Assembly: GCA_963665275.2 (NCBI GenBank)
Contig: CAXXIN010000007.1
Coordinates: forward strand, 1 to 64,000
DNA length: 64,000 nucleotides
DNA from: Negativicutes bacterium
Lineage (GTDB): Bacteria; Bacillota; Negativicutes; UBA1444
Reading direction: 5' to 3'
Shown: positions 40,208 to 55,219 of the stretch, piece by piece
How the letters are laid out: every line of letters starts with the position of its first letter
How positions within the stretch are numbered: the first letter of the stretch is position 1
The notes under the pieces: generated by a model
What the model saw: the letters and a program-made list of their open reading frames with translations, nothing else
Told to the model about the DNA's origin: nothing
Databases searched by the model: none
Made by a program: the position numbers and the translations under genes

Positions 40208-40280
40208 CAAATCCCATTCCTCCAAGCAATTGTAGGGTGAGGCGAAATCCTCTCACGTATATTATAGAATGATTTGTCAA

Positions 40281-40335: not shown

Positions 40336-40351
40336 TTGATCCAGCCTCTCC

Positions 40352-42199
40352 TTATTGGATCGGCTCTCTAATCTCAGTTGCCATTACGCCGTCCGCGCAT
40401 CGGACAACAATGTATCGCTCCCAAGCGGTTTCTTTTCGCGTTACTGGAACATTGTCTTCATATTGAGCAAACCGCAAATGTGGCCCCCGGCTCTCGTCGC
40501 GCAACAACGCCGCGCGAAGGACCGCTTCCGCTGTCAACAACAAGCTTCTGTTCTCGAAGAAATAGGCCGGTGATTTCTCGCCCATAGCAAACCCTTCGGC
40601 TTTGATTGTTTCCAACTGTAATAGCCTTTCCTTAAGTCCGGCTTCTGTGCGTACGATTCCTGCCCCAGCCTCAGTCAGGCCTTGCAGCGTCCGGCGGAAC
40701 TCCATCGCATTCACAGAGCAGCCTGCTGAACTGGCAATCTCGCCGAGAATGTCCTCAACCGCCGCCTTCAGCGTTACGTCATCCGCCGCCAATTCATCGG
40801 CCGGCAACGACTTGCCTTTGGTCTCTTTCACACAGGCAGCGGCATCTTCACCGGCGATCCGCCCGAATACCTGGCAATCCAGCAATGCATTGCCGCCGGG
40901 CCGATTGGCGCCGTGCTGCCCCCCAGCCGTCTCGCCTGCTGCCCACACGCCGGGTACCGTAGTTCTCGCCTGGGCATTGATTTTAATCCCGCCTTGAAAA
41001 TGTTGAGCGCAGGCAGCCACCTCAATCAGATCGCCTTTCATCAGATTGATCCCGTACTCGGCGAACCAATCGATTGAAGGCTGGTTGATCTCCCGCAGAC
41101 GCTCAAGCGGCGTTTTGTTTCGAAGCGCCTCGCCAAGATCCATCGTCATTTCGCTGCGATACCGAGCCTGATTTTCCGCTGTCAGCCATTCAAAGGAAAA
41201 ACCTTGCGGGTTTCGCCCAAAATCGAGAAACGTCCGTCGACCGGCTTTCCATTCTTTGTAGAGAGCGATATCGATGATATGGGTTTTGTGCTCATACGAC
41301 ACCGGCCAGCTGGCGCCCTTGAGGAATACGGTATTGGCAATTTCCGCAGCAGAGGTCCCTGCCGGGAAATATTGAGCCAGGAATTCTTCCCCTTCGGAGT
41401 TGACCAATCGGGGAATCGCCCGCATCATACTGCCGGAACAATTGAACTTGGTTTTCGTGGACGCAATGCCGATCTGCACGAATTCCATGTTGACGAGTTC
41501 CGCCCCCGCTGCGTAAGCCATGGCGAAGCCGTCACCCGTCATCCCGCCGGGGAACACATTGTGTTCATAAATCATACCGCCGCCGCCGGTAGCCAGAATA
41601 GCCGCTGGTGTGCGAATGATGAACGCGGCTTGGGCAGGATCTTTCTCGCGCGTATCCAGCGCCACAGCTCCAACCAAGCGTTTCCCCGCATGAACGAGAC
41701 GCACTACCATCGCATAATCCAATACATCAATTCCCAAAGTGCAAAAATGTTTCACCAATGCGTTTTCAATGTGAACAGCTGTCCGGGGCCCGGTATAACA
41801 AGCCCTTGCATATGCCGATCCATCTGTAACGAATTGGTCGGCGTGCCCATCTTTCTTGACAAAGGGAACTCCGAGTCCGTCAAGATATTCATAGGCACCC
41901 GCAGCATTTTTCGCCAACACTTCAGCCAGATTTTTGTCTGAGACTTTGCCGCCGATGCGATAGATATCATCGGCATGATAGGACCAGGCATCGTTACCGC
42001 CCGGTTCTGTTGTCGGCAACGTGGCATGAAAAGCCATTCGATCAGAGCAAGAATTGGCAGTCACGCCGCTCTTCCCCGGCTTGCCTTTGGTCGCCACGCA
42101 CACGGACAGTCCCGACTCCGCTTCTTTGGCAGCTATAGCGGCGCGCAAGGCTGCGCCACCACTGCCGACCACCAGTACGTCACAGTCTACGATTTTCAT
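40352..42199 (-). CDS. FAD-binding oxidoreductase, SdhA/FrdA/NadB superfamily, atypical active site
   Basis: VVGSGGAAL, LATGGGG, TGDG..MAY.AGA.L.NMEFVQ, AAGE, HGANRPGGNAL and RDESRGPH motifs. Confidence 0.85.
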   Translation of the reverse strand: MKIVDCDVLVVGSGGAALRAAIAAKEAESGLSVCVATKGKPGKSGVTANSCSDRMAFHATLPTTEPGGNDAWSYHADDIYRIGGKVSDKNLAEVLAKNAAGAYEYLDGLGVPFVKKDGHADQFVTDGSAYARACYTGPRTAVHIENALVKHFCTLGIDVLDYAMVVRLVHAGKRLVGAVALDTREKDPAQAAFIIRTPAAILATGGGGMIYEHNVFPGGMTGDGFAMAYAAGAELVNMEFVQIGIASTKTKFNCSGSMMRAIPRLVNSEGEEFLAQYFPAGTSAAEIANTVFLKGASWPVSYEHKTHIIDIALYKEWKAGRRTFLDFGRNPQGFSFEWLTAENQARYRSEMTMDLGEALRNKTPLERLREINQPSIDWFAEYGINLMKGDLIEVAACAQHFQGGIKINAQARTTVPGVWAAGETAGGQHGANRPGGNALLDCQVFGRIAGEDAAACVKETKGKSLPADELAADDVTLKAAVEDILGEIASSAGCSVNAMEFRRTLQGLTEAGAGIVRTEAGLKERLLQLETIKAEGFAMGEKSPAYFFENRSLLLTAEAVLRAALLRDESRGPHLRFAQYEDNVPVTRKETAWERYIVVRCADGVMATEIREPIQ

Positions 42200-42576
42200 G
42201 CATGCTCTCCGCCTTTCATCTCTTGCGCCCAATGTTCGGCTACCGCTTTCGGCGCATAACAAAACATCATGATCATATTGTCAGTCGAAGTGTTCGTCAA
42301 CATATGAGTTGACTGGGGGGTGATGTAAATACAGTCACCGGTCTTCACGTTCCGGGTTTCGTCATCCACTGCGACGATTCCCGCCCCGGCAACAATATAA
42401 TAAACTTCTTCCTGCTGGTGAGAATGCAACGGCACGGAGCCCCCCGGATAAATCGTCACATGCCCCATCACGAACTGTTCCGCTTCCAATGGAGCGTTCG
42501 GTCCCACAATAACCCGGGTCGACCGACCGGCCGGAAACTCCATACCTTTTATATCGGCAACATTAACGATGTTCAA
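42196..42576 (-). CDS. Cupin domain protein
   Basis: PGGSVPLHSHQQEEVYY..G.G and GD.IYI.P...H motifs. Confidence 0.88.
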   Translation of the reverse strand: MNIVNVADIKGMEFPAGRSTRVIVGPNAPLEAEQFVMGHVTIYPGGSVPLHSHQQEEVYYIVAGAGIVAVDDETRNVKTGDCIYITPQSTHMLTNTSTDNMIMMFCYAPKAVAEHWAQEMKGGEHA

Positions 42577-42603
42577 TTCGTTCCCTCCCTAATCAACATG
42601 AGT

Positions 42604-43917
42604 CTACCGAACCTTGATACCCAACGGGCCTTCCAGGATCGTACGCAATTCATTCACATAGTCGCCAAAGATCACCATGTGATGGCAACCCAGCGACTCC
42701 TCGATCCGCTTTTGTGTGGAATCGATCTGGAACCGGAATTGTGTGCGGCAGGTATCCTCATCCGGATTGCTGATGAAATCAGCAGAGAATAGGGTAGCTT
42801 CCGAAAATTCATTTCCAAGCCTGAACAACGTCACTTTTTGCGGCTCCTGCACCTCGATCCGCTGCGCCACACTTACTCCGGTTTCATGATGCGACCGCAC
42901 CGTATAGCTGGTTTTCGTATCGCCGGTCAAACGGCGCGGCGCGGTGCAATGCACGATATCGAGCGTATTGTCCAGGTGGTATACGGGATTGCCCATGAAA
43001 ACCGGTTGTCCTGATACAGCCTTGCCGACCACCATTGATATGGCGGCGTCCAGATCACCTTCGCAGGCGGCAATAAGGCCCGGCTCATCGTTCAACAGGG
43101 AAAGCGCCAGGCAGGAGGTCACTCCGAGCTGTTTCACCAACGAGAAGCAGGATATCGCCATTGCATTGGCATTGTATCGCACCAGCAACCTTTTGAGTGC
43201 AAGGTATAGCCGATATGCGTCCTCCACGCTTGCCGCCGCCGGCTCCCGGCAGGAAGCCGCCGAACCAATGTAGGAAGCGACAAAACTTTTTACGGCCGCA
43301 TCCCTGGGAATCTCATGATATTCGGCGAACAGCTCCTCCAGGCCGATATGAACGCTCTGAATCCCCAACCGGTCTTCGATCCAACGTTCATCGACACTTG
43401 TTGACACAACCCACTGCTGAGTATAGCCGATAATCAGAAGCCGAGTGGCCCGAATCTTATCCATCGCCGACAACAGGAGGCATTTTTCCTGCAACGATGC
43501 CTTATCAAAGACTTTTTCGATCTGTACATGCCGGTTTCGAAGATGCGCCCAGCAATCCATCACTGCCGGCACGGCATTCTTGGATACAATCTGGCGGATG
43601 GTCTGTTCCACCGGCGCCGAAAACAGGTCGTCCCCTGGGAAATACCACCACAACAGGGATTGTTTTGCGGCCTTCGCCACAGAAAGAACCCAGCGCTGGG
43701 TGGCCCCGGAAAGGTTTACCAGCAACGGCGTCGCGTTACTGCATCCTTCAAGGTAAGAATCTACTCCTGCCTGACTGTTCAGGTACAGAGGCTCCAAAAG
43801 TTCCGTCGCCTCAGGCATTATCGCACGAACCAGTTTCATCATCGTGCCTGCATCAGACAAAAACTGCTCCTGCTCATAATAAACCGGACTGGCAAAAAAC
43901 AAAGGCTGAATTCGCAT
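42604..43917 (-). CDS. L-fucose/L-arabinose isomerase-like protein
   Basis: AISCF, CLALSLLND, ACEGD, HCTAP, RSHHETG, CRTQ and GCHH motifs. Confidence 0.75.
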   Translation of the reverse strand: MRIQPLFFASPVYYEQEQFLSDAGTMMKLVRAIMPEATELLEPLYLNSQAGVDSYLEGCSNATPLLVNLSGATQRWVLSVAKAAKQSLLWWYFPGDDLFSAPVEQTIRQIVSKNAVPAVMDCWAHLRNRHVQIEKVFDKASLQEKCLLLSAMDKIRATRLLIIGYTQQWVVSTSVDERWIEDRLGIQSVHIGLEELFAEYHEIPRDAAVKSFVASYIGSAASCREPAAASVEDAYRLYLALKRLLVRYNANAMAISCFSLVKQLGVTSCLALSLLNDEPGLIAACEGDLDAAISMVVGKAVSGQPVFMGNPVYHLDNTLDIVHCTAPRRLTGDTKTSYTVRSHHETGVSVAQRIEVQEPQKVTLFRLGNEFSEATLFSADFISNPDEDTCRTQFRFQIDSTQKRIEESLGCHHMVIFGDYVNELRTILEGPLGIKVR

Positions 43918-43934
43918 ATTGCTTCTCCTCTTAC

Positions 43935-44638
43935 TTAACGTTCCCCAAGGTATGCTTTTTTCACACCTGGGTCGCACAACAAATCTTTCCCTTTACCTTC
44001 CATCGTCACCGGCCATTTTCCAAAACATAGGCATAATCACACAAAGCCAGCGCCTTCTTGGCATTTTGTTCGACCAGCATAACCGTGATTCCCTGTTCGC
44101 GGATTTGGGCAATCAGATCAAAGATGCTTTTGACAATAATCGGGGCAAGGCCCAGCGATGGCTCATCCAACAGAATCAGTTTGGGCTCGGACATCAAGCC
44201 GCGGCACACTGCCAGCATCTGCTGCTCTCCCCCTGACAGCGTTCCAGCCTGTTGATTCCTGCGACTGGAGAGAATAGGATACAGTTGCATCATTTTTTCC
44301 GCATTGGCCTTCAGTTGGCTTGAATTTTTCAGTATATAGCCGCCGGCCAGCAGATTTTCCTCCACCGTAAGTCCGGCAAAAATCTTGCGCCCTTCCGGGA
44401 CCTGAACGATACCCAGATTGACAATATCGTGCGGGACTCTGATGAGTTCTTTTCCTTCAAATTTAATATTGCCCTGCTTCTGTTTTACAATGCCGGAAAT
44501 GGTGTTGAGGAGCGTGGTCTTTCCTGCACCGTTGGAGCCGATAATACTGACGATGCTGCCCTGCGGCACTCGGATGCTCACCCCGGATAGCGCCTGGATG
44601 TGTCCATAGGAAACATGCAGATTCTCTATAGCAAGCAC
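43935..44638 (-). CDS. livF: LivF-like ABC ATPase; 1-bp deletion near 44009 removes the last ~24 aa as sequenced
   Basis: GSNGAGKTT, LSGGEQQ and DEPSLGLAP; adding one G restores ENGRVTMEGKGKDLLCDPGVKKAYLGER*. Confidence 0.88.
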
Positions 44639-45405
44639 GCTTCATCCTCCTCACCAATGTAAGCTGTCGTTACTTCAGAATTGTTCTGTATTTCGGACGG
44701 CGTTCCGCTTGCCAGCAATTTGCCGAAATTGAGCACATAAATATTGGCGCAAAGGGTCATGATGACTTCCATGCGATGCTCAATAACTAGAACGGACAAG
44801 GCGAATTTTTCATGCACCGTTCGAATGAGTCGAATGAAGTCCTGCACTTCGCTCGGATTGAGCCCGGCCGCCGGTTCATCCAACAGCAGCACCTTGGGAT
44901 TGGAGGCCAATGCCCTGGCAAGTTCCAATTTGCGCTGTAATCCGTAGGGAAGGTTTTCCGGCTTTTCGTCCTCATATCCGGCCAGACCGACCAATGCCAA
45001 AAAACTGCGGCTCATGTCGCGAACTTCATTTTCCCGTCTTCGCTTGCGTCCACTGTACAGGAAAACGTCAGCCAGATTATACGACGAGTAGGGATCAGCC
45101 GCCGTCATGACGTTTTCAATCACGTTGAGTCCTTTGAACAGGCGGATATTCTGGAAGGTCCGGGCGAGACCCTTCTGGGTGATCTGATATTGCGGCAAAC
45201 CGCTGATTTTTTCATCATCCAGGAATACCTGCCCTTGATCGAGGGGATAAACTCCGGTCAGCAAATTGAACGCCGTAGTCTTGCCAGCGCCATTGGGGCC
45301 AATGATCCCGACGATCTGACGCTCCCCCACGGAAAATGAAAAATCATCAATCGCCTGCACTCCGCCAAAGGCTTTGGACAGATTCTTTGCTTCCAGACGG
45401 CTCAT
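44626..45405 (-). CDS. livG: LivG-like ABC ATPase
   Basis: GPNGAGKTT, RTFQNIRLF, LPYGLQR and DEPAAG motifs. Confidence 0.9.
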   Translation of the reverse strand: MSRLEAKNLSKAFGGVQAIDDFSFSVGERQIVGIIGPNGAGKTTAFNLLTGVYPLDQGQVFLDDEKISGLPQYQITQKGLARTFQNIRLFKGLNVIENVMTAADPYSSYNLADVFLYSGRKRRRENEVRDMSRSFLALVGLAGYEDEKPENLPYGLQRKLELARALASNPKVLLLDEPAAGLNPSEVQDFIRLIRTVHEKFALSVLVIEHRMEVIMTLCANIYVLNFGKLLASGTPSEIQNNSEVTTAYIGEEDEACLL

Positions 45406-46262
45406 GATGCCTTGACCCCCTTTTTCCCCAACTGCCGCAGCCATTTGAGCGTAAGCTCGAACTCGCCGAAGATCCCGATCGGCCGATAATTGATGATCAA
45501 AAGAACAATCACGCAATACACCGCTATGCGCCATTCTGATGCGAAGCGCAGCATTTCAGGCAAGCCGGTCAGCAGCAGTGTGGCAAATACTGAACCGGTC
45601 AGACTGTTGATCCCACCGACAAATACGATGATGATCCATTCGGCCGATACAATCCAGCCAAATGCCCCCGGTTCGACATAGGTCGTGTAAAAGGCATACA
45701 GAACGCCAGCGTAGCTGGTCATGGCCGCCGCGAACAGGAACGTCACCAGCTTGATGCGGTTCACGTTGATCCCCATGGCTTTCGCCGCCAGTTCATCCGC
45801 CCGAAGCGCCAGACACTGCCGACCATATTTCGAATGTTTGTATCCGACCGCCAAAGCCAGACAAACCGCCACACTGCCCCACACAATGGCAAAATTCGTG
45901 TACTGCGGAATCCCGGAAAGTCCCATGGCTCCGCCGGTCAGATTAGCCGAGTTGTTCAAGAGAGCAATGATAGCTTCGCCAAAACCAAAGGTGACGAGGG
46001 AAATATAATCCCGACGAAGACGAACCGTTGGATATCCTACCAGGAACCCGGCCAGCAGCCCGACAGCCATCGCCGCAGGCACTGCCAACAGAAATGGTAC
46101 ACCCAGGTCTTTCACCAGCATGGCCGAAGTATATGCGCCAACTGAAAAGAAGGCAGCCTGTCCAAAAGAAAACAGCCCCGTCAGTCCCGTAACCAGATAA
46201 GACCCCAGCACCCCGATTACCGTGATGCCTGTGAAAGTAAGAACTGCAAAAATGTATTCCAA
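45402..46262 (-). CDS. livM: LivM-like ABC permease
   Basis: GLFSFGQAAF, RLRRDY and DELAAKAMGIN motifs. Confidence 0.88.
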   Translation of the reverse strand: MEYIFAVLTFTGITVIGVLGSYLVTGLTGLFSFGQAAFFSVGAYTSAMLVKDLGVPFLLAVPAAMAVGLLAGFLVGYPTVRLRRDYISLVTFGFGEAIIALLNNSANLTGGAMGLSGIPQYTNFAIVWGSVAVCLALAVGYKHSKYGRQCLALRADELAAKAMGINVNRIKLVTFLFAAAMTSYAGVLYAFYTTYVEPGAFGWIVSAEWIIIVFVGGINSLTGSVFATLLLTGLPEMLRFASEWRIAVYCVIVLLIINYRPIGIFGEFELTLKWLRQLGKKGVKAS

Positions 46263-46274
46263 CGCCGCGCCCCC

Positions 46275-47165
46275 CTAAGCCTTTTCCTGCACGATGACGC
46301 CCGATATGCCGCGCGGCCTCACCAGCAGGAAAACCAGCATGACAATAAATACAAACACCGGCGCAAGACCGGCGCCTACGGCGCCAATCAGCGTCACTTC
46401 CAGAACTCCGAGCAAAACGGCTCCGATCATAGCGCCTGTGATGCTGCCCAGGCCACCGATAACTGAAGCAATGAAGCCCTTGACGATGAGCTGACCCATT
46501 TGGGGATAGAGCGTGTAGTTGATCCCCAGAAAGACGCCGGCGATGCCGCCCAGAATCCCCGCCGCAATAAAGGTGGCCATAACGACGCGGTTGGAGTCCA
46601 TTCCCATCAGATTGGCAGTATTGACATCAAACGACAAGGCCCTGATGGCAAGGCCGATCCGAGTCCGGTAGAGCACCCACAGCAAAATCATCAAAGATAT
46701 GGAGGAAAACACCAGCATCAACAAATCCGTCAAAGCGATATTGACGTGAGCGATATTCACCACGGTCAGCTCAAAAAATCTCGGATAGGAGTAAAATGTG
46801 CTGCTGGCAAAAATGGTCACGATATTTTCCATCAGGATGCCCATTGTAATCGACGATATGAAGTAATAAATAACCGGACTGTTGTTGTTGCGAATCCGTC
46901 GGAACGCCATCCGTTCCAGCACGATGCCGACCAGGGCGCCAGCCAGCGCCGCACTGAACAAAGTTGCGGCGAACAGGGACAATCCACTGAGCCAGGTGCT
47001 AAAGAACAATGCTGCGGCAAGTCCAATATAGGCGGTCAGGGTCATTACGCCGCCATGGGCAAAATTCGAAAATTTGAGAATGTTGAAAACCAGGGCAAAC
47101 CCCACCGCAATCAGTGCATATACCGACCCCAGGGAAACTCCGTTCAACAACTGCTGAATACTCAC
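46275..47165 (-). CDS. livH: LivH-like ABC permease
   Basis: QQLLNGVSLGSVYALIAVG, NFAHG and GGLGSITGA motifs. Confidence 0.9.
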   Translation of the reverse strand: MSIQQLLNGVSLGSVYALIAVGFALVFNILKFSNFAHGGVMTLTAYIGLAAALFFSTWLSGLSLFAATLFSAALAGALVGIVLERMAFRRIRNNNSPVIYYFISSITMGILMENIVTIFASSTFYSYPRFFELTVVNIAHVNIALTDLLMLVFSSISLMILLWVLYRTRIGLAIRALSFDVNTANLMGMDSNRVVMATFIAAGILGGIAGVFLGINYTLYPQMGQLIVKGFIASVIGGLGSITGAMIGAVLLGVLEVTLIGAVGAGLAPVFVFIVMLVFLLVRPRGISGVIVQEKA

Positions 47166-47266
47166 CGGATACCCTCCACTCATATATTTTAGGAATTTTC
47201 GGGCGGGACTGGACGCAGGGGATTCTATCCCCGCGCCCATCTGTCGAACGTATTGATCATTTCGGA

Positions 47267-48919
47267 TTAGAATATGGTAGCACCCTCATCAGAAGCGCTG
47301 GTCATTTTTTTGTAAAGGGCCAGCCAGCCGGTTGCCGGTTTTTCGATTGGCTTCCAGCTTGCTTTACGTTTTGCCAGTTCTTCGTCGGAAACTTTCACGT
47401 TCATTGTGCGGGCCGGTATATCGATTTCAATGATGTCACCGTTCTGGATCAGAGCCAATGCACCACCGTCATAAGCTTCCGGAGAAACGTAGCCGATGCC
47501 GAGGCCTCGAGTAGCGCCGGAAAAACGGCCATCGGTGATGAGCGCGACACTCTCGTCCAGACCTTTGCCGCACACCGCCGTCAGGAAAGTTTCCAGATGA
47601 GGCATTCCGGGCGAACCTTTGGGTCCCTCGTAGCGGATGACTACGACGTCTCCCGCCACAATTTCATCCCTCAGCAAAGCTTCCCAGCCTTCTGTCTCTG
47701 ATTCATAGACTTTGGCAGGGCCACAGAGCCGATGGGCTTTTTCTTTTACAGCCGAGAATTTCACTATCGCGCCACGGGAAGCCATATTCCCCTGCAAAAC
47801 GGCAATGCCGCCTTCCGGGCTAATCGGATTTGATACTGGATGAATAACGTCCAAATCACGATTTTCCACACCAATCAGTCGTTCCCGCAGGGTACCGGTA
47901 ATCGATCCCACATCCAGGCAGAGCTTGTCTGCTGCCGCCAGTTCCTTCAATACGGCACGGACGCCGCCGGCACGATCGAAGTCAACCATCGTATAGGTAT
48001 CATGGCTGGGGTAGATAGTGCTGAGCAAGGGAATCTCCCGACTGATCCGGTCGAAGTCTTCATAGGTGATATTGAAGCCTGCCTGTTTGGCGACTGCCGG
48101 CAGATGGAGGACGGTATTGGTTGAGCCGCCAGTGGCCATGACATATTTGATGAAATTCATATAGGATTCCAGCGTGATGTGGTCTTTGGGCTTCCAATCC
48201 TTTTTGATGAGTTCGACGATCAGTTCGCCTGACTCCCGGGCCATTTGTTTCCATTCCTCGCTGTTAGCGGCCACGCTGGCATTGCCGGGCAGCGACAGTC
48301 CCAGCACTTCGGCCATGGCGCACATGGTATTGGCCGTACCCATGAACGGACAGGCGCCGGTGGTCGGGCAGGCGTTGCGAACAACCCCCTTGTAGTCTTC
48401 ACGCGACATTATGCCACCTTTATAGGCCGCATAGGACTGTTTCGTGTGGGTCAGGGTAATCATCTTGCCTTTGTAGCTGCCGGGCTGCATGTAGCCGCCG
48501 GTGAACATGACACTGGGCAGGTTGAGCCGGTTCACGGCCATCACCATACCAGGAACGACCTTATCGCAACTCGCCAACAAGATCATGCCATCCAGTTGAT
48601 TGCCTTCCACCATGGACTCGACTTCAGCGGACACCAGATCACGGCTGGGCAGAGTATAACGATCGCCCGGCGTATTGGAGCAGATGCCGTCGCAGATGCC
48701 GGTTACGGGAATTTCCAGCGGCAAGCCCCCGGCTTTGCGGATCGCCGTCTTTATTTCCTCGACTACGCTTTTGAAATGGAAGTGTCCGGGATTGAGCTCG
48801 TTCCATGAATTGACGATGCCGACATAGGGTTTGGTAGTGTCCTCTTCTTTAAGTCCCATCGCAAACAGCAACGCATTGCGGTGGTCAATCGCTTCTTCGG
48901 AAAAATCCTGTGTTCTCAT
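47267..48919 (-). CDS. IlvD/Edd family dehydratase (probably a catabolic paralogue)
   Basis: NPGHFH, CDGI, CDKVVPG, GAC.FMGTANTM, GGSTN, YEGPKG.PGM and TDGRFSG motifs. Confidence 0.88.
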   Translation of the reverse strand: MRTQDFSEEAIDHRNALLFAMGLKEEDTTKPYVGIVNSWNELNPGHFHFKSVVEEIKTAIRKAGGLPLEIPVTGICDGICSNTPGDRYTLPSRDLVSAEVESMVEGNQLDGMILLASCDKVVPGMVMAVNRLNLPSVMFTGGYMQPGSYKGKMITLTHTKQSYAAYKGGIMSREDYKGVVRNACPTTGACPFMGTANTMCAMAEVLGLSLPGNASVAANSEEWKQMARESGELIVELIKKDWKPKDHITLESYMNFIKYVMATGGSTNTVLHLPAVAKQAGFNITYEDFDRISREIPLLSTIYPSHDTYTMVDFDRAGGVRAVLKELAAADKLCLDVGSITGTLRERLIGVENRDLDVIHPVSNPISPEGGIAVLQGNMASRGAIVKFSAVKEKAHRLCGPAKVYESETEGWEALLRDEIVAGDVVVIRYEGPKGSPGMPHLETFLTAVCGKGLDESVALITDGRFSGATRGLGIGYVSPEAYDGGALALIQNGDIIEIDIPARTMNVKVSDEELAKRKASWKPIEKPATGWLALYKKMTSASDEGATIF

Positions 48920-48954
48920 ATTTCATGCACCTATCCTTTCATAATCCAGTGACT

Positions 48955-49734
48955 CTAAAACCGCCGCAAATGGAACCCGCCGTCCACGTTGATGACATCG
49001 CCGGTAGAATACAGCAGTCCGCCGTTACTGAGGGTGAAGATCGCCTGCGCGATATCTTCGGGCTGTCCCCAGCGTTTGATCGGCAACAGACCGTTTTTGA
49101 TCAACGGATCATATTTGTCGTGCACTTTGGCCGTCAGCTCGGTTTCGATGATTCCCGGTCGTATTTCATAGACCCGTATGCCCTCCGGCGCCAGACGGTC
49201 CGCAAAAAGTTGGGTGATCATGCTCACGCCGGCTTTGGAAATGCAGTATTCCCCGCGGTTGAGCGATGTCGTGTAGGCCGACATAGAAGATATATTGATG
49301 ATCATGGGATCCATTTCGGGGTTTTCCCGTTTTTCACCGATCATGATATTGGCAATCGCCTGACTGAGAAAAAATGTGCCCCGCAGATTGATCCCCAGCA
49401 CAAAATCCATACTTTCTTCTGTTGTCTCCAGAATATCCAGCCTGACCTTGGGACCAACCCCGGCGTTGTTTACCAACAGGTCAATTCGCCCGAAATCCTG
49501 CATCAGCTGCCCGACCATCCTGTCTCTGTCTGCCGTTGATGCCAAGTCCCCCTGCACATAAATGACGGGATGACCGAAAGCCTTGACTGCGTCGATCGCT
49601 GCCTGGACTGCTTCAGCCGGCTGGCGAGAGTTCATGGCCACAGCATACCCTTCCCTGGCTAGCCGAACGGCGACCGCCAGGCCGATGCTGCGCGAAGATC
49701 CCGTTACCAGCGCTACTTTTTCCTTTATCATCAT
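48955..49734 (-). CDS. Short-chain dehydrogenase/reductase
   Basis: TGSSRSIG, NNAG, catalytic YCISK and C-terminal DGGFHLRRF. Confidence 0.9.
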   Translation of the reverse strand: MMIKEKVALVTGSSRSIGLAVAVRLAREGYAVAMNSRQPAEAVQAAIDAVKAFGHPVIYVQGDLASTADRDRMVGQLMQDFGRIDLLVNNAGVGPKVRLDILETTEESMDFVLGINLRGTFFLSQAIANIMIGEKRENPEMDPMIINISSMSAYTTSLNRGEYCISKAGVSMITQLFADRLAPEGIRVYEIRPGIIETELTAKVHDKYDPLIKNGLLPIKRWGQPEDIAQAIFTLSNGGLLYSTGDVINVDGGFHLRRF

Positions 49735-49753
49735 CTCTTGCTCCTCTCCTGCT

Positions 49754-50140
49754 TTATCCCATGGGTTTTTCCCGCCACATCAGGTGCAGGATATTTCCTT
49801 CCGGATCGCGGAAGAATAATAATTTACTGCTTTGGGTTTCCCTCCGCTCGATGAAATCGCTTATGCCGTTTTCCCGCAGGTGAGCTTCGGTAGCTGCATA
49901 GTCATCGACCGTGACGGCCAGATGACGAAATCCTGCGGCGGATTGACTGTAATCGGTTTTAGCGCCGCTGGTCGCAGGCAATATTTCGATCACCATTCCG
50001 TCCGGCGCCTTGAGCAAAAACGTGGGCGGTTGTTTGCCGTTATCGTAAACCACCCGCAGGCCGAACAACTTGATGTACCATTCCGCGAGCGCCTTGCTGT
50101 CCATCGCGGCAATCGCGAAATGTTCGAATCCCAAAATCAT
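49754..50140 (-). CDS. VOC (glyoxalase/epimerase) family protein
   Basis: EHFAI, RHLAVTVDD and FFRDPEGN motifs. Confidence 0.85.
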   Translation of the reverse strand: MILGFEHFAIAAMDSKALAEWYIKLFGLRVVYDNGKQPPTFLLKAPDGMVIEILPATSGAKTDYSQSAAGFRHLAVTVDDYAATEAHLRENGISDFIERRETQSSKLLFFRDPEGNILHLMWREKPMG

Positions 50141-50153
50141 GCGTCAGCCTCCC

Positions 50154-51173
50154 TTACGGTTTCAGAATGATCTTCACAGCTTTCTCATTCGGGTCAAGCG
50201 CAGCTTTCATCGCCTTGTCGACATCGGCCAGCGGGAAAACATGGGAAACCAGTTTCTCCAGATCCAGGGTCGAGGTAAGGGCCAGCGCAGTGTCGAAATC
50301 CCAACAGTAACCCTGGGATCCCTGCACGATGATTTCCTGTGAAACGAATATGGAAGCTGGAATCTGAATGGTCGGTTGTTCAAATATGCCCACCATCGTC
50401 GCCGTGCCACCTTTACAAAGGCAAGATATAGCTTGGACAAAGGTTTCCTCTCGTCCGGCGCACTCGAAGGATTTTCCGATACCCCGCCCGCCAGTGACTT
50501 CGCGCACGACATCCACTACCGAATCGTTCCGGGAGTTGACAGTCCGCGTCGCCCCCATGACTGCCGCCATTTGCAGGCGGGCTTCGGAGATGTCCGTAAT
50601 GATTATTTCCCGCGCGCCGGCAGCTTTGCTGACAGCTGCGATCAAAATACCGATGGGTCCGGCGCCGATAATGACTACTTTATCGCCGAGGCCGATTTTG
50701 GCGCGTTTGACCGCATGGACAGCCACTGCCAGCGGTTCGACCAACGCCCCTCCTTCATAGGAAAGATGCTCCGGCAGTTTGTAGACATAACGCTCATCGA
50801 CCACGAAATAATCGGCCATGGCGCCCTGCCCCTTGCGGTAATGGTAGCTCAGGTTGTCGCAGTAGCCATAGAGACCGCTCCTGCAGGGCGGGCAGTCGCC
50901 ACAGACAATGACAGGCTCGACCGTCACCCTGTCACCGATATGGACCGTTGTCACCCCCTCGCCTACCTCAATGACCTCGCCGGCTAGCTCGTGCCCCATA
51001 CTCATCGGTAAGGGCGCCGAAGGATGTTTTCCCTTATAAATGTGCAAATCGCCGCCACAAACACTTGTGGCCCTGATCGCAATCAGCACCTCTGTGTTGC
51101 CGAGTTTCGGGACTTCATGTTCGATGAGTTCGGCCGTTCCCGCCGTATGAACCATTGCCATTCTAGATTTCAC
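50154..51173 (-). CDS. Zinc-dependent alcohol/polyol dehydrogenase
   Basis: CGGDLH, GHE, CGDCPPC..C, EPLAVAVH and GAGPIG motifs. Confidence 0.92.
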   Translation of the reverse strand: MKSRMAMVHTAGTAELIEHEVPKLGNTEVLIAIRATSVCGGDLHIYKGKHPSAPLPMSMGHELAGEVIEVGEGVTTVHIGDRVTVEPVIVCGDCPPCRSGLYGYCDNLSYHYRKGQGAMADYFVVDERYVYKLPEHLSYEGGALVEPLAVAVHAVKRAKIGLGDKVVIIGAGPIGILIAAVSKAAGAREIIITDISEARLQMAAVMGATRTVNSRNDSVVDVVREVTGGRGIGKSFECAGREETFVQAISCLCKGGTATMVGIFEQPTIQIPASIFVSQEIIVQGSQGYCWDFDTALALTSTLDLEKLVSHVFPLADVDKAMKAALDPNEKAVKIILKP

Positions 51174-51270
51174 AGTCGATGCCTCCTCTGCTTTGTTCCA
51201 ATATGTAAAGGCCGGATCAGACCGGCGTTGCTTTCTTGTTCAGTCAGATTGTTTTCTGATTGTTTATTTT

Positions 51271-51301
51271 GTGGGGACACCGCTATTCACGGTGTCCCCA
51301 C
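51271..51301. other. Perfect 12-bp hairpin after the solute-binding protein gene (mRNA stabiliser or partial terminator)
   Basis: GTGGGGACACCG / CGGTGTCCCCAC; no U-tract on the transcribed minus strand. Confidence 0.6.
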
Positions 51302-51307
51302 TTGATC

Positions 51308-52501
51308 CTATTTTTTGTGTTTTTCCGGTACATAACGGCCAAGATCGATGTACTTGCCGTTTTCGAGTTTATACATTACCATCGACAAGCCTACCGGTTG
51401 GTGGGTTTGCGGCGAGATCGTAAGGATTCCGGTCGTTCCCTTCACACCAGTAACTTTATTCAGACCTTCGAGAATTTTATCGGGAGTAGCGCTACCGCCC
51501 TGTTTAATCGCTTCGGCCACAACCAATATTTTGTCGTAGCCCAGATAAACTTTATTGATGGGATCTTCGTTGTATTTTGCCTTGTAGGCGTTCCGCACTT
51601 CCGCCAATTGCGGTTCGGTATCAGAATAGTTGTTGGCAAAGTAAATGTTGTTGGCTGCCTGTGGATCGTTGAGCATCGAGGCGAACGGCGCTGCGTAGTC
51701 CAAGGCGCCAAGGAAGGGGATTGTCAGACCCAGCTGTTTGCTTTGCTTAGCGGTGATGATCAGCTCCTGTATGTAATTGGGAGCAAAAACAACATCTGCG
51801 CCTGAATTCTTGATTTTGTCCAATTGAGTTTTAAAATCTTTGTCGCCCTTGGAGTAAACTTCTTCGGCGACGATCGTCGCTCCGGCGGCCTTAGCATAAG
51901 CCTTAAACGGCGCCACGAGAGAAACCGCATAAGCATTGGACTGGTCATTGAAAATGGCGATCTTCTTCAGGCCCAGTTTTTCCACCGCATAACTGGCCAT
52001 GATTTCACCATATTGAACAGTACTTGGCTGCACCAGAAACATGGATGGATGCACTTTTCCATCGGTGCCTACAGTAGCGCGCGGATCAGCGAAACTGCCT
52101 ACGAAAGCCACTTTTTTGGCGTCAGCGATGGAGGCGAGGCCGATTCCGATGTTGCTGATCGGTGGTCCGATGACGACGACGGCTTTTTCCTGGTCTGCAA
52201 GACGATTAAAAGCCTTGATGGCTTCCTGCACATCGCCCTTGGTATCCATGCTGATCAATTTGATCTTGGCGCCGTTGAGTCCGCCCTGACCATTAATCTT
52301 GTCGATAGCCAGTTCAGCACCGCGTGTAACCGCGTTGCCCCATACAGAGGTTGGACCGCTCAGATCCTGCAGGTTGCCGACGATGATTTCTTTGGCGGCA
52401 GCCGGCGCCGCAGGTTTGGATGATTGACCGCCACAGCCCGCGAACAGAGCCATTCCTACAACCAGCAAACTAATCAGGGCAACTACTGTAACCTTTTTCA
52501 T
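51308..52501 (-). CDS. LivJ-like ABC substrate-binding lipoprotein
   Basis: Lipobox FAGC; LSGPTSVWG, INGQGGLNG and DFKTQL motifs. Confidence 0.9.
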   Translation of the reverse strand: MKKVTVVALISLLVVGMALFAGCGGQSSKPAAPAAAKEIIVGNLQDLSGPTSVWGNAVTRGAELAIDKINGQGGLNGAKIKLISMDTKGDVQEAIKAFNRLADQEKAVVVIGPPISNIGIGLASIADAKKVAFVGSFADPRATVGTDGKVHPSMFLVQPSTVQYGEIMASYAVEKLGLKKIAIFNDQSNAYAVSLVAPFKAYAKAAGATIVAEEVYSKGDKDFKTQLDKIKNSGADVVFAPNYIQELIITAKQSKQLGLTIPFLGALDYAAPFASMLNDPQAANNIYFANNYSDTEPQLAEVRNAYKAKYNEDPINKVYLGYDKILVVAEAIKQGGSATPDKILEGLNKVTGVKGTTGILTISPQTHQPVGLSMVMYKLENGKYIDLGRYVPEKHKK

Positions 52502-52587
52502 GTTTCTCCTCCTTCTTTCCCCAAAGCGAATTCGATAACGGAAACACGTGTGATCTTTCCAACTTCTCCCCCTTCCACCATCAACGG

Positions 52588-53946
52588 TTAAATATGTTCG
52601 GCTACCTGATCACTATCTGCCGGCGGCTTGCCTTCCCGCCCCTTCTGGTAAATGGGCGCATATTTTGCCGCATCCCGGGGAACACAGCCGGTACAGCCAC
52701 CGTCACGCATGATCGTGGTGCATTTGCTGCAGGCAAGACAGACCTTGCGTGGATCAAAAGCACCTTTGGTCAACAAGTCGGTGGCAAAATCCGGATAAGC
52801 AAAAGCCTGTCGACCGAACCCGGCCAATTTCAGCCATCCCTGCTGCACGCATGCCGCCGCTACATTCGGTGCAAACTGCCGCAGCCAGGTAAGTCCGGTT
52901 CCCATGATGGCCGCCTCCGGCACTGCCGCCTGCATGACCTTCGCCGCATTCAGCAGCAATTGAATACCTTCCAGCGGATGGAACGGCGAAACATAGCCAC
53001 CAATATCGCAGGGACGGGTCAGGTGCGGATTATAGTAAGGATTTCCCAAACTGATGTTGAAGAGCTTGACTCCTTTTTCCCACAGGATCTGCATCAGTTG
53101 AACGGGTTCGGTGAAATCCGGCTTGTGGTAATCATCCTTGTCCACGCCCCAGCCATAAGGCTGCGGCACTTCGTCGAACACTCCCAGACGGACTGCCAGT
53201 GTGATCCGGTCTCCGAGTTTATTTCTGACCTTGTCGACAATATTGCAGAGAAAACGGGTTCGATTTTCAAAACTGCCGCCGTAAGGACCGGGACGGGTTC
53301 TCGCCCCTAACAGTTCCGCCATCAGGTACCCATGGCAGGCCTTGATGTCCACCGCATCGAAACCGGCGTCGGCTGCCGCCTCGGCGGCGGCCACGTAAGT
53401 ATCCTCCAGCGCTTCCAGTTCCGCGTCGGAAATGACAGTAACGCTGGTGAACTTCGCATCGAGATGGGGATTGTGGGCGGCGACGATTGGAGCCGGGACT
53501 CCTGCCGGTTTGCTGTTGCGGCCTGAATGATTTAGTTGGACGACCGTATATGGCTTCGGATGTCCGGCTTTGCGGGCGGCTTCCAGCGCGTCTTGCAACA
53601 AAGAGGCATAAGCATCCTTCACTTCGGCATTCAACATCAATTGACGGGGATTGGCCCTTCCTTCGCTGACAACAGAAGTCGCTTCAAACCATAACAGTCC
53701 GGCGCCGCCGGCAGCAAAGCGTTCATAACGCCGCCGGGTAAGGTCACTTGGTCTGCCGTCGCCTGTACCGTCACAGCCCTCCATTGGGTTGACTGCCAGT
53801 CGATTGGGTACGGTTTTGCCGTCAATAACCAACGGCTGCCCCAAAATGCTAAGATCAGTCGACAGTGGAATATCGACGCCGATCCGGGCAATGTCCTGTT
53901 TGAGTTCTTCCAACGTTTTGTAGCTGAATTTCGCGTGCTGTGCCAT
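52588..53946 (-). CDS. NADH:flavin oxidoreductase (Old Yellow Enzyme family) with C-terminal Cys cluster
   Basis: PNRLAVNPMEG, QLNHSGR, AGFDAVDIKACHGYL, YGGSFENRTRF and CLACSKC..C motifs. Confidence 0.88.
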   Translation of the reverse strand: MAQHAKFSYKTLEELKQDIARIGVDIPLSTDLSILGQPLVIDGKTVPNRLAVNPMEGCDGTGDGRPSDLTRRRYERFAAGGAGLLWFEATSVVSEGRANPRQLMLNAEVKDAYASLLQDALEAARKAGHPKPYTVVQLNHSGRNSKPAGVPAPIVAAHNPHLDAKFTSVTVISDAELEALEDTYVAAAEAAADAGFDAVDIKACHGYLMAELLGARTRPGPYGGSFENRTRFLCNIVDKVRNKLGDRITLAVRLGVFDEVPQPYGWGVDKDDYHKPDFTEPVQLMQILWEKGVKLFNISLGNPYYNPHLTRPCDIGGYVSPFHPLEGIQLLLNAAKVMQAAVPEAAIMGTGLTWLRQFAPNVAAACVQQGWLKLAGFGRQAFAYPDFATDLLTKGAFDPRKVCLACSKCTTIMRDGGCTGCVPRDAAKYAPIYQKGREGKPPADSDQVAEHI

Positions 53947-54027
53947 GGTAGCCCCTCCATTATTCATCAGTTTCTTGTTATTTGCTGTTCTCATTGTCAT
54001 ACATACATTTCGGATTACCTCTGCAAA

Positions 54028-55020
54028 CTAAATCACCGATTTTCGGATAACCAACTGCGCCGGCAGAACTTCGATTTTGGGTCGTTTGGTTCGGCCTTTT
54101 TCAATCAGATCAATCAATCTGAGGCAGGCGCGGACTCCCATCTCATAAAAAGGCTGCGCCACGGTCGTCAGCGGTGGATCGATCTGAGTGGAAAAATCCA
54201 GATTATCAAACCCCATCACGGAGATATCTTGCGGCACCCGCAGCCCCATATCCCGAATCGCCCGGATAATTCCCATCGCCTTGGGATCGCTGGTGGCGAA
54301 TACTGCGTCCGGCCTATTGCCTGCTTCCAAAAGGTTTTTCATCACCTCATACCCATCATCCCAACCGCTGATTCCGTGAATGACCATACCGGCTGGTTCA
54401 GCCATCTTAGCCTCACGCATCGCCCGCAAATATCCTTCATAGCGGTCCCGGTAAAGAGGCAGGTCGAGACTTCCGTTGATGAACGCCAGTTTTTTCAAAC
54501 CACGGGACAGCATGTACCTGGTCGCTTCATACGCTCCGCCCTCATTGTCGAGCACCACCGTATTAATCGACTTACCGAGCTGGCGAATCAAAAAGACAGC
54601 CGGCACACCTTCAGACGGAAGATTCAACAAATATTCATGCCCGGGGCGGGCCGTTGAAAAAATAAACCCATCGATCAATCGGCGACGCAGGCTGTCAATA
54701 TATGATCTTTCTTTAGCAATATTTTCATCCGTATTGCATAAAACAACCGTGTATCCATTCTCCTCTGCCGTGTCTTCGATACCGCGTATAGCTGCGGGAA
54801 AGACCAGACTGCGTATGTTCGGAACAACCAGTCCGATCGTGCGAAGACTACCGCCCTTGAGTCCCTGCGCAAAAGCATTAGGCTGGTATTTCAACTTGCC
54901 CACGGCCTCCATCACACGATTCCGAGCTTCTTCACTTACAGGCACATTTCCGGTAAGCACCCGCGAGACTGTGCTGGTGGAAACACCTGCAGCCTTCGCC
55001 ACATCATGAATGTTAACCAA
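54028..55020 (-). CDS. LacI family transcriptional regulator
   Basis: IHDVAKAAGVSTSTVSRVL HTH, YQPN, VPQDISVMGFD and PPLTTVAQP; TTG start. Confidence 0.95.
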   Translation of the reverse strand: MVNIHDVAKAAGVSTSTVSRVLTGNVPVSEEARNRVMEAVGKLKYQPNAFAQGLKGGSLRTIGLVVPNIRSLVFPAAIRGIEDTAEENGYTVVLCNTDENIAKERSYIDSLRRRLIDGFIFSTARPGHEYLLNLPSEGVPAVFLIRQLGKSINTVVLDNEGGAYEATRYMLSRGLKKLAFINGSLDLPLYRDRYEGYLRAMREAKMAEPAGMVIHGISGWDDGYEVMKNLLEAGNRPDAVFATSDPKAMGIIRAIRDMGLRVPQDISVMGFDNLDFSTQIDPPLTTVAQPFYEMGVRACLRLIDLIEKGRTKRPKIEVLPAQLVIRKSVI

Positions 55021-55036
55021 TGAAGTTCCTCCAGTC

Positions 55037-55062
55037 TGCAAACGTTTCTGCAATCGTTTTCA
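55037..55062. promoter_or_regulatory. Tandem LacI-type operators
   Basis: TGCAATCGTTTTCA (55049-62) fits TGNAANCGNTTNCA; overlapping weaker TGCAAACGTTTCTG (55037-50); just upstream of lacI. Confidence 0.7.
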
Positions 55063-55190: not shown

Positions 55191-55219
55191 CCTTACTTAA
55201 TCTAATACCTTAAAAACGA

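Follow-up and report, generated by a model that had tools for sequence, protein, structure and literature searches.

A LacI-controlled 14-gene operon in a Negativicutes bacterium: a candidate catabolic unit for an acidic carbohydrate

Results

We analysed a stretch of 64,000 nucleotides from an anaerobic Negativicutes bacterium (the window; positions 1 to 64,000 of contig CAXXIN010000007.1, assembly GCA_963665275.2), which carries fourteen co-oriented genes on its minus strand (40352-55020), each preceded by a Shine-Dalgarno-like sequence. These genes form a genuine LacI-controlled operon (Table 1). Besides the LacI-type regulator, they encode an Old Yellow Enzyme (OYE)-like iron-sulfur (Fe-S) flavoenzyme, an SdhA/FrdA/NadB-like FAD flavoprotein, an isomerase-like protein, a Zn-dependent dehydrogenase (ZnDH), a short-chain dehydrogenase/reductase (SDR), an IlvD-type dehydratase, a VOC-fold protein, a small cupin, and the complete complement of a HAAT (LIV) importer, consisting of a Peripla_BP_6 solute-binding protein (SBP), two BPD_transp_2 permeases and two ATPases. 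Families were assigned by Pfam and NCBIfam profile searches, and the starts of lacI, OYE and the isomerase-like and SdhA-like genes were revised on the basis of homologue length and ribosome-binding sites. As a result, the OYE-like protein has 452 residues and not 470, and the ATG of the SdhA-like gene overlaps the stop codon of the cupin gene. The only NCBIfam equivalog cut-offs reached by the 14 proteins are those of a generic SDR model and of TIGR00110 (IlvD), and no Rfam family was found at gathering score in positions 36000-58000. An earlier note, made from the letters of the window, had listed these 14 genes, stated that kinase, aldolase, glycosidase and CoA ligase are lacking, and proposed LacI control and a terminator at the end. 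The profile searches confirm the list and found no match to any of these four families in the 14 proteins, while the tandem operators and the terminal hairpin bear out the proposed control and end of the operon.

Table 1. Positions of the operon genes, their control elements and neighbouring features in the window
Feature	Position	Strand	Size (residues)	Evidence or remark
Promoter-like site	55105-55076	-		CTGACA, 18-nt spacer, AATGAT; promoter scan
Two overlapping LacI-type operator palindromes, TGAAAACGATTGCA and TGCAGAAACGTTTGCA	55037-55062	-		Sequence reading; just 5' of the lacI ribosome-binding site
lacI	54028-55020	-	330	TTG start; LacI HTH (PF00356, E 3e-18) and PF13377 (E 3e-38) (Peripla_BP_3/1)
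OYE-like Fe-S flavoenzyme	52588-53946	-	452	PF00724, E 5.5e-28
SBP, LIV/HAAT-type solute-binding lipoprotein	51308-52501	-	397	Peripla_BP_6, E 3.4e-62
Intra-operon hairpin without U-tract	51271-51301	-		Directly 3' of the SBP stop; read from the sequence
ZnDH, Zn-dependent medium-chain polyol dehydrogenase	50154-51173	-	339	ADH_N and ADH_zinc_N
VOC/glyoxalase-fold protein	49754-50140	-	128	PF00903, E 4.9e-12
SDR oxidoreductase	48955-49734	-	259	adh_short_C2, E 7.6e-48
IlvD/EDD-family dehydratase paralogue	47267-48919	-	550	PF00920 (ILVD_EDD_N), E 4.5e-114; PF24877 (ILV_EDD_C), E 7.5e-71
livH permease	46275-47240	-		BPD_transp_2
livM permease	45402-46262	-		BPD_transp_2
livG ATPase	44626-45405	-		ABC_tran; start corrected to 45405
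livF ATPase	44006-44638	-		ABC_tran
AraA/FucI-fold isomerase-like protein	42604-43917	-	437	No Pfam match; predicted structure; revised start 43917
Small single-domain cupin	42196-42576	-	126	Cupin_2, E 6.8e-18
SdhA/FrdA/NadB-like FAD flavoprotein	40352-42199	-	615	FAD_binding_2, E 4.6e-43; Succ_DH_flav_C, E 1.2e-7; revised start 42199
Intrinsic terminator closing the operon	40277-40339	-		Hairpin of -35.1 kcal/mol (z -7.39), then UUUUU
DAHP synthase and prephenate dehydrogenase genes	58468-60365			Upstream of the operon
FMN_red flavoprotein gene	55421-55984			Precedes the 40-codon reading frame
Reading frame of 40 codons	55221-55342	-	40	Just 5' of the operon promoter; terminator hairpin of its own at about 55165-55196
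aroE	39320-40225			Downstream of the operon
Genes for a BTAD/TPR regulator, an Amidohydro_2 protein and an MFS transporter	33051-39129	-		Between aroE and a Fic gene
Amidohydro_2 gene	36520-37767			Downstream of the operon
Membrane-subunit and hydrogenase-like genes	21825-29175	-		Syntenic in relatives

The operator tandem lies between the promoter-like site and the ribosome-binding site of lacI. With their central CG and their position at lacI's own promoter, the palindromes are predicted LacI/GalR-type binding sites. The tandem is kept at the same position in two relatives (L006 and L009), whose LacI proteins are 76-77% identical to that of the window, within a spacer that has diverged. Clostridial loci whose LacI is 46-48% identical carry the consensus TGCAAnCGnTTGCA 5' of the SBP gene and of the genes for the isomerase and a protein X, described below. 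This palindrome precedes the SBP-liv-IlvD and X/isomerase operons in seven of the eight LacI-bearing Clostridial loci beginning with the cupin gene that were scanned (L024, L026, L029, L032, L036, L038 and L047); it is perfect in L036 and was not found in L030. In the 3.97-Mb genome, neither the second window operator nor the idealised palindrome has further copies at up to one mismatch; the first window operator has three single-mismatch matches elsewhere, and 18 distinct two-mismatch sites were also found. LacI itself stays below the NCBIfam equivalog cut-offs, PurR being its best model (239 bits against 501).

The terminator follows directly on the stop codon of the SdhA-like gene, and none of 200 shuffled sequences folds as well. 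The hairpin behind the SBP gene is possibly an mRNA stabiliser or an attenuator. Upstream of the operon promoter, the separate 40-codon reading frame ends in W-C-A-C-G-R-R-A-T-Q-P-F-C-D-G-T-H, presumably a CDGSH iron-sulfur motif.

The OYE-like protein combines an FMN TIM barrel (PF00724, residues 55-278 of the long reading frame) with a C-terminal C-x2-C-x2-C-x11-C motif, and it ends without a C-terminal FAD/NAD(P)H (Pyr_redox_2) domain. The four cysteines (C403, C406, C409 and C421), a predicted [4Fe-4S] site, are invariant in the alignment, and this motif as well as D-[ILV]-K-x-C-H-[GR]-Y-L is present in 20 out of 20 homologues. Its best PDB match scores only 84 bits, and the curated models for NamA (93 bits, cut-off 431), BaiCD (77, cut-off 825) and the bilirubin reductase N-domain (78, cut-off 425) are all missed. 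In Planctomycetes, homologues of about 895 residues (L161:7944-10637 and L127:7959-10643) are fused to Fer4_20 and Pyr_redox_2, a GltD-like NAD(P)H module that was seen in no other homologues. Judged by its predicted domains, this fusion is a third architecture among Fe-S flavoenzymes, and it suggests that the unfused short OYE needs an external electron partner.

The second flavoprotein was aligned with Escherichia coli FrdA, in which we take H44 to be the covalent-FAD histidine and H232, R287, H355 and R390 to be substrate-binding or catalytic. The equivalents of H44 and H232 are glycines, those of H355 and R390 are kept, and the region of R287 is unaligned. TfrA (278 bits against 718) and nadB (176 against 453) are among its NCBIfam scores, and neither of the two flavoproteins reaches a curated cut-off.

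The isomerase-like protein is a member of a rare family: 5.8 billion protein clusters yielded 67 relatives at E <= 0.001. Its AF2 model, built from a 17-sequence alignment, has a pLDDT of 93.4 and shows a three-domain AraA/FucI fold. Foldseek relates the model to the L-arabinose isomerases 7chl and 7cwv (E 4e-21, TMq 0.79) and to L-fucose isomerases (E 1e-15), an assignment with which a language-model atlas agrees. On the strength of the modelled fold, isomerase chemistry would be expected. In an hhalign alignment with E. coli AraA, whose probability is only 46.6%, the invariant glutamate of a CEGD motif (E286) corresponds to E306 and G309 to E333, the two residues that we take to be the catalytic, metal-binding glutamate pair of AraA. 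Other invariant residues of the family (H323, H343, H344, E345 and H412) could complete a metal site, and five cysteines are invariant as well.

None of the importer proteins reaches the NCBIfam equivalog cut-offs for LivJ, LivH, LivM, LivG or LivF. The best PDB matches of the SBP are amino-acid binders (4gnr, 139 bits; 3td9, 110 bits). Compared with E. coli LivJ, the equivalents of Y150, Y202 and S79 are kept, that of Y202 being invariant among the cluster SBPs, and T102 and E226 are not found at the same columns. We take Y202 to bind the ligand carboxylate and T102 and E226 to hold the alpha-ammonium group. As to ligand class, the comparison is ambiguous. The nearest NCBIfam models of ZnDH are Tdh (249 bits against 380) and IolM (210 against 450), and its PDB matches are xylitol, threonine, arabinitol and sorbitol dehydrogenases. 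The SDR scores 340.6 bits against NF009386 (cut-off 250). IlvD scores 635.3 bits against TIGR00110 (cut-off 618.15), and dihydroxy-acid dehydratase 6nte is its best PDB match (424 bits). Because a second, better-scoring IlvD is encoded on contig C15, the operon copy is a dedicated paralogue, whose physiological substrate need not be dihydroxy-isovalerate. Clostridial cluster copies are 50-54% identical to ZnDH and 59-63% identical to IlvD. The cupin occurs in 17 cluster loci at 43-75% identity; its PDB matches are uncharacterised cupins, DddK and TM1459 only, and none of the 49 is an entry named KdgF.

A family-alignment pattern search of representative genomes gave 151 relatives of the isomerase, of which the best 80 were kept. 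Leaving out the redundant L002 and L018, the window's own L008, and L063, which has no full-length match, we analysed 78 non-redundant loci. L017 and L018, from two metagenome-assembled genomes of different phyla (Synergistales and Phycisphaerales), agree in contig number, length (9117 bp), match coordinates and identities; this duplication is probably a binning artefact and was counted once. At least three of six enzymes (OYE, SdhA-like, cupin, IlvD, ZnDH and SDR) are present in 16 of the 78 loci. The 17 loci at 45% isomerase identity or more, from Negativicutes, Synergistaceae and Rhodoplanes, many on contigs of only 2-10 kb, contain OYE (5), the SdhA-like gene (6), cupin (7), SBP (6) and livF (11). 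Among 34 mostly Clostridial loci at 29-36% identity, OYE occurs in 13, cupin in 12, SBP in 13, IlvD in 12, ZnDH in 10, LacI in 10, SDR in five and the FAD protein in five; in all five Clostridial genomes that were searched further, the FAD gene lies just past the fetched flank. Cluster genes were found in a single one of the 27 loci below 29% identity (Planctomycetota, Acidobacteriota and Verrucomicrobiota).

The gene set thus recurs in Negativicutes, Clostridia, Tepidanaerobacter and Synergistota in shuffled order. It reads livHMGF-IlvD-OYE-ZnDH-SDR-FAD-isomerase-cupin in Tepidanaerobacter, cupin-X-isomerase-SBP-livHMGF-IlvD-LacI-OYE-ZnDH-SDR-FAD in Limiplasma and Oscillospiraceae, and GntR-OYE-SBP-livHMGF-isomerase-SdhA, with cupin and ZnDH divergent, in Synergistaceae. 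In another form, also Clostridial, AP_endonuc_2, Amidohydro_2, isomerase, OYE, SDR and FAD genes precede Gfo/Idh/MocA genes and UxaC. Spirochaetes have the isomerase and LIV module with a MetE-like gene and without OYE. The neighbours of the Rhodoplanes isomerase (FAD_oxidored, enoyl-CoA hydratase, CoA-transferase, DHDPS-like, epimerase and MFS genes) give no usable clue. That the set recurs across phyla in differing orders argues that its arrangement is more than chance; absence of co-conservation, which the earlier note had named as a ground for abandoning its proposal, is not what these genomes show.

Protein X always lies between cupin and isomerase (L024:8985-9851, L026:9078-9986 and seven other Clostridial loci) and has no Pfam or NCBIfam match. 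Its N-terminal domain has a KDPG/KHG-aldolase fold without an invariant lysine, and its His-rich C-terminal domain has invariant H196, E236, H248 and H298. With the query used, a search of the window's genome (92.6% complete) gave no match to protein X. The VOC protein was considered as a counterpart of this C-terminal domain, a relationship for which no support was obtained (BLASTP E 0.13; hhalign probability 0.11%). Likewise, the Amidohydro_2 gene downstream of the operon is not a member of the cluster, its product being unrelated to the Amidohydro_2 protein of the Clostridial variant (BLASTP E 0.12).

The OYE search confirmed at least 592 relatives; 80 were kept and, with the known L110 and L158 excluded, 78 loci were counted. 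The short OYE family, which is much larger than that of the isomerase, is found in Clostridia (including the cultured Caldicoprobacter), Moorella, Desulfobacterales, Chloroflexota, Planctomycetota and Armatimonadota. An Frd-like FAD gene accompanies OYE in 46 of the 78 loci and an SDR of at least 45% identity in 43; where both flanks span at least 6 kb (38 loci), the numbers are 31 and 25. In L106, L108, L112, L114, L116, L137 and L176, the OYE and FAD genes are immediate neighbours, in one order or the other. Clustering and Pfam also identified KDPG/KHG aldolase (18 loci), LacI (14) and PfkB kinase (12), and a second ZnDH type (10), BNR_4 (8), URO-D (6) and Gfo/Idh/MocA genes are present as well. 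None of these 78 loci contains the isomerase. A Desulfobacterales locus has an IclR regulator at its head and additional genes for electron-transfer flavoprotein (ETF) alpha and beta, and in Caldicoprobacter the OYE/FAD pair adjoins GH9 and GH10 genes.

Methyltransferase-like genes of the URO-D/MetE clan recur near both modules: Meth_synt_2 genes lie beside the isomerase-LIV module (L043 and L025, Spirochaetaceae; L034), and URO-D genes lie beside the OYE-FAD module (L127, L137 and L147 among others), in Moorella too. These recurrent neighbours hint at methylated substrates.

Within the GTDB order of the window's genome, the isomerase is found in seven of 13 species genomes. One of them, from another genus (G006; L105, G006:C10), has the same 5' half at the same chromosomal site with 84-94% identity. 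The VOC gene is kept (85%) only in this close relative and is a singleton among the other loci. Five genomes of the window's own genus have a shorter form, which lacks the ZnDH-VOC-SDR-IlvD block and has a different ZnDH. When the two forms are compared, identity is 79-94% for permeases and ATPases (permeases 87-94%) but only 61-63% for SBP and only 57-59% for OYE; lacI, OYE and SBP of the window form are 57-77% identical to those of the same-genus L006 and L009. For the flanking DAHP synthase, identity is 87-90% whichever form is considered. As the window form is nearer to that of another genus and the flanks are equally similar, these comparisons suggest that the two allelic forms, found at one chromosomal site within a single family, arose by recombinational replacement of a cassette. 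The 5' half is probably a specificity cassette, with the two forms taking related but different substrates.

The operon sits inside an aromatic-amino-acid locus, with the DAHP synthase and prephenate dehydrogenase genes upstream and aroE downstream. AroE is the sole shikimate-dehydrogenase homologue found in the genome (92.6% complete) and is therefore probably a housekeeping, biosynthetic enzyme; type II dehydroquinase is encoded on another contig. Adjacency of aroE is limited to three of the 17 close isomerase loci, all Negativicutes, and is seen in none of the 61 others. In the short-variant L002, aroE starts 9 nt after the end of the SdhA-like reading frame, and it follows directly in L004 and L006, so that in such relatives it may be co-transcribed with the LacI-repressed operon.

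A PfkB gene (C7:141427-142437) adjoins an Eda-like aldolase gene (C7:142508-143077) on the contig of the operon, 86 kb away from it. Elsewhere in the genome (G000:C13:340111-341717), a second Eda-like aldolase gene with internal TAG stops lies beside fragmented PfkB matches, and the two appear to be a degenerate version of the kinase/aldolase pair. Two further gene groups were noted in the window. The genes at 33051-39129, including one for a regulator of 1082 residues and one for a transporter of the lactate/oxalate-formate type, are absent from the syntenic region of relatives and are therefore a separate insertion. The genes at 21825-29175 encode Mrp/complex-I-like membrane subunits and proteins resembling the large and small subunits of NiFe-hydrogenase (Complex1_49kDa/NiFeSe_Hases; Oxidored_q6 with Fer4), and the cluster looks like a group-4 energy-converting hydrogenase.

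Discussion

The earlier note regarded the 14 genes as a single self-contained unit, a view that does not agree with their distribution among relatives, nor with the retention of VOC in one close relative only. Judged by the gene content of related loci, the operon is pieced together, mosaic-like, from three modules that differ in distribution. The first is the widespread couple of OYE-FeS and Frd-like FAD proteins, with or without SDR; the second comprises the isomerase and the LIV-type importer; and the third is the ZnDH-(VOC)-SDR-IlvD block, which is 50-63% identical to Clostridial copies.

Our favoured reading, put forward tentatively since it may well be wrong, is that the operon, under repression by LacI, serves to break down an acidic carbohydrate via a 2-keto-3-deoxy acid resembling 2-keto-3-deoxygluconate (KDG). 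Our best guess for the substrate is a sugar acid of the uronate or aldonate type, which may be unsaturated, deoxy or ether-blocked. The LIV/HAAT-type ABC system would import this compound, and the AraA/FucI-fold protein would carry out a ketol isomerisation of the aldose-ketose type, possibly aided by the cupin in ring opening or tautomerisation. ZnDH and SDR would interconvert hydroxyl and keto groups, and the IlvD paralogue would dehydrate the 2,3-dihydroxy-acid end to the 2-keto-3-deoxy acid. C=C redox steps on enone or enoate intermediates are probably supplied by the flavoproteins, acting as a split couple of an OYE-type FMN/[4Fe-4S] protein and an Frd-like protein with non-covalent FAD; it is their gene neighbourhood that suggests a physical pairing. 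Finally, PfkB kinase and Eda-type aldolase, whose genes lie elsewhere on the contig, would complete the route from the KDG-like product. The genes with their operators and terminator, the fold of the isomerase-like protein, the motifs and the co-conservation are what the data show; we infer the class of substrate, each of the chemical steps, their order and the pairing of the flavoproteins, and the order given in the earlier note (oxidise, isomerise, dehydrate, reduce) is likewise inferred.

Several observations together point to an acidic carbohydrate and a KDG-like acid: the aldolase, PfkB, UxaC, Gfo and GH contexts of related loci, their LacI and IclR regulators, the tyrosine of the SBP that we take to bind a carboxylate, and the presence of an IlvD paralogue. 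They also bear on two other proposals of the earlier note. The occurrence of aldolase and PfkB genes near the OYE module, and of a PfkB-Eda pair on the contig itself, weakens the description of the pathway as non-phosphorylative and self-contained, which we now consider doubtful. Of the substrate classes it had named, our data favour a modified sugar or sugar acid.

A number of findings weigh against the acidic-carbohydrate reading. Regarding the importer, the best-known ligands of LIV-type binding proteins include amino acids, amides and aromatic acids, but no sugars; the nearest solved relatives of the SBP bind amino acids; and Synergistaceae, which have the core version of the cluster, are mainly amino-acid fermenters. 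Regarding the enzymes, IlvD scores as a true dihydroxy-acid dehydratase by TIGR00110 and reaches only 439 bits with the L-arabinonate dehydratase model (cut-off 882), and the presumed second catalytic glutamate of AraA is replaced by G309 in the isomerase-like protein, according to the low-probability alignment described above. Moreover, the FAD gene is absent from seven of the 38 well-flanked OYE loci. Kinase and aldolase neighbours were seen mostly in Planctomycetota, which have an OYE of only 48-52% identity, and in loci that lack the isomerase; and in addition to the distance of the PfkB-Eda pair from the operon, the genome operator scan found no operator-like site linked to that pair.

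Three other explanations were weighed, all of them less well supported than the acidic-carbohydrate reading. Given that the cluster is located inside an aro locus, it might belong to a reductive or fermentative pathway for hydroaromatic acids such as quinate or shikimate, in which the dehydrogenases make 3-dehydroshikimate, the OYE-like and Frd-like proteins reduce the ring C=C, and AroE participates. The chemistry would be suitable, since 3-dehydroshikimate is an enone and shikimate an enoate; LIV-type SBPs presumably bind aromatic and alicyclic acids too, and lactobacilli reportedly make dihydroshikimate, a finding ascribed to Whiting and Coggins. The close adjacency of aroE in L002, L004 and L006 also fits, but it is restricted to Negativicutes, and in the window a strong terminator parts AroE from the operon. 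Furthermore, a sole AroE, with the type II dehydroquinase encoded elsewhere, is most simply biosynthetic, and the cluster has no dehydroquinase of its own. Quinate lacks a 2,3-dihydroxy-acid motif, the AraA-fold isomerase and IlvD would have no obvious role, and the aldolase, PfkB and UxaC contexts indicate open-chain sugar acids. We therefore consider a hydroaromatic substrate very improbable. The solved structures closest to the SBP raise the different idea of an amino-acid-linked sugar or amino sugar acid (an Amadori or Heyns compound, a glycosyl-amino acid or glucosaminate), of which the SBP would read the amino-acid part and the isomerase the sugar part, while the NadB-like flavoprotein would oxidise the C-N bond. 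The L-threonine 3-dehydrogenase model as best match of ZnDH, the additional match of the flavoprotein to L-aspartate oxidase models, the core version of the cluster in Synergistaceae and the MetE-like gene beside the Spirochaete isomerase and LIV genes are all in line with it. On the other hand, the residues assumed to hold the alpha-ammonium group in LivJ are not conserved at the aligned columns, the Pfam and NCBIfam searches identified no deglycase, aminotransferase or deaminase among the 14 proteins, and the LacI-type regulators and the contexts in Clostridia and Planctomycetota are those of sugars. This idea is improbable in our view.

It is also conceivable that the genes do not form one pathway, and that two or three unrelated modules (importer and isomerase; flavoprotein couple; dehydrogenase/IlvD block) share a promoter in this lineage. 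Their differing distributions, the absence of the isomerase from all 78 other OYE-family loci, the lack of the ZnDH-VOC-SDR-IlvD block in the five relatives of the same genus with an observed locus, and the Spirochaete isomerase and LIV genes without OYE would be accounted for in this way. However, OYE, FAD, isomerase, cupin, IlvD, ZnDH, SDR and LIV genes recur, reordered, in Tepidanaerobacter and at least eight Clostridial loci, the LacI palindrome precedes more than one Clostridial operon, and all 14 window genes are bracketed by one promoter/operator and one terminator. An accidental juxtaposition is likewise improbable.

Returning to the acidic-carbohydrate reading, a more far-reaching version of it, which is unlikely though worth stating, holds that the OYE-[4Fe-4S] and Frd-like FAD proteins are a new split two-flavin oxidoreductase, widespread in anaerobes with 592 or more loci and representing an undescribed redox branch of sugar-acid catabolism, with one site for desaturation or reduction beside the carboxylate and a second site for enone reduction. 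If this were so, blocked or unsaturated uronates (4-O-methylglucuronate, anhydro- and unsaturated uronates) would be funnelled to KDG without oxygen, and the window operon would be the version with its own importer, isomerase and IlvD-type dehydratase.

Whichever substrate is taken up, the operon provides a regulated context, conserved across phyla, for a large OYE subfamily that has no NAD(P)H module of its own and travels with a fumarate-reductase-like flavoprotein. Identification of the substrate would reveal the function of hundreds of loci in bacteria of digesters, guts and sediments, give the rare AraA-fold isomerase family its first function, provide new ene-reductase chemistry, and add an anoxic route of carbon flow for acidic sugars derived from plants or algae. 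In addition, the two allelic forms of the operon are a natural experiment that may reveal how substrate specificity swaps.

Comparison with known systems

The earlier note did not recognise a described pathway in the operon, and our results agree with this: no high-identity match to a characterised pathway was found, the specific curated models were missed, and the PDB relatives are distant. A characterised pathway with this gene set was not found in the literature either, although the supplementary tables of a genomic survey of Fe-S flavoenzyme gene clusters (PMC7371122) might list the cluster family. The main text of that survey mentions no isomerase, dehydratase, ABC transporter, LacI, fumarate reductase or cupin; it reports 849 cluster families, most of them unassigned, and predicts saccharide catabolism for 80. 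Fe-S flavoenzymes have expanded greatly in anaerobes. According to a review (PMC11574389), most of them are without known function; it also describes the architecture with a C-terminal FAD/NAD(P)H domain that defines the family.

Compared with the 2,4-dienoyl-CoA reductase/2-enoate reductase family (BaiCD, BaiH, BilR and daidzein reductase), the OYE-like protein shares the N-terminal OYE-like FMN barrel and the four-cysteine motif, as well as anaerobic hosts and a catabolic cluster setting. It differs from them in that it has no FAD/NAD(P)H domain of its own and is paired with a separate Frd-like FAD protein. Moreover, what we take to be the first histidine of their H-x-x-H/N-G-Y motif is a lysine in all 20 OYE homologues. 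The SdhA-like protein, in turn, resembles TfrA, NadB, flavocytochrome c and urocanate reductase in its FAD_binding_2 and Succ_DH_flav_C domains and in the retained equivalents of H355 and R390, and like the soluble fumarate-reductase-like flavoproteins it lacks the covalent-FAD histidine. Unlike these, it has a glycine at the position of FrdA H232, and the operon has no TfrB/SdhB-type Fe-S subunit, cytochrome or FMN_bind domain. The isomerase-like protein shares its fold with SftI and with L-arabinose and L-fucose isomerases, is close to SftI in length, and gives a weak match to the SftI model (E 1e-14, residues 162-392). This match amounts to 54 bits against a cut-off of 700, however, and the protein differs further in having no Pfam domain and in its five invariant cysteines, which are unexplained.

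Among pathways, uronates and unsaturated uronates are converted to KDG by UxaC-UxuB-UxuA and by KdgF-KduI-KduD-KdgK-KdgA, respectively. These routes isomerise, reduce and dehydrate to a 2-keto-3-deoxy acid, which is then processed by kinase and aldolase. The likeness extends to a small cupin, an SDR, LacI or IclR regulators, the aldolase and PfkB genes of related loci, and UxaC beside Clostridial variants. Nevertheless, none of the enzymes is orthologous: the operon SDR scores 147.7 bits against KduD (TIGR01832, cut-off 338.85), the isomerase has the AraA/FucI fold and is not of the UxaC or KduI type, and the dehydratase is IlvD-type instead of UxuA or UxaA. The two flavoproteins have no counterpart in these routes, and the importer of the operon is LIV-type. 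The L-idonate/5-ketogluconate pathway, which uses the Zn-dehydrogenase IdnD, the SDR IdnO and the LacI-type repressor IdnR, followed by Edd, resembles the operon in its Zn-dehydrogenase, SDR, repressor of the LacI family and dehydratase of the IlvD/EDD family with an aldonic acid as substrate. The corresponding matches are weak (IdnD, 169 bits against 469; gluconate 5-dehydrogenase, 139 against 279; IdnR, 148 against 500), and the operon differs in lacking gluconate kinase and in its additional isomerase, cupin and flavoproteins. Set beside these systems, the operon is an uncharacterised version of a repressor-controlled sugar-acid operon, equipped with a split pair of flavoenzymes, widespread but unstudied, and with an isomerase of a rare family.

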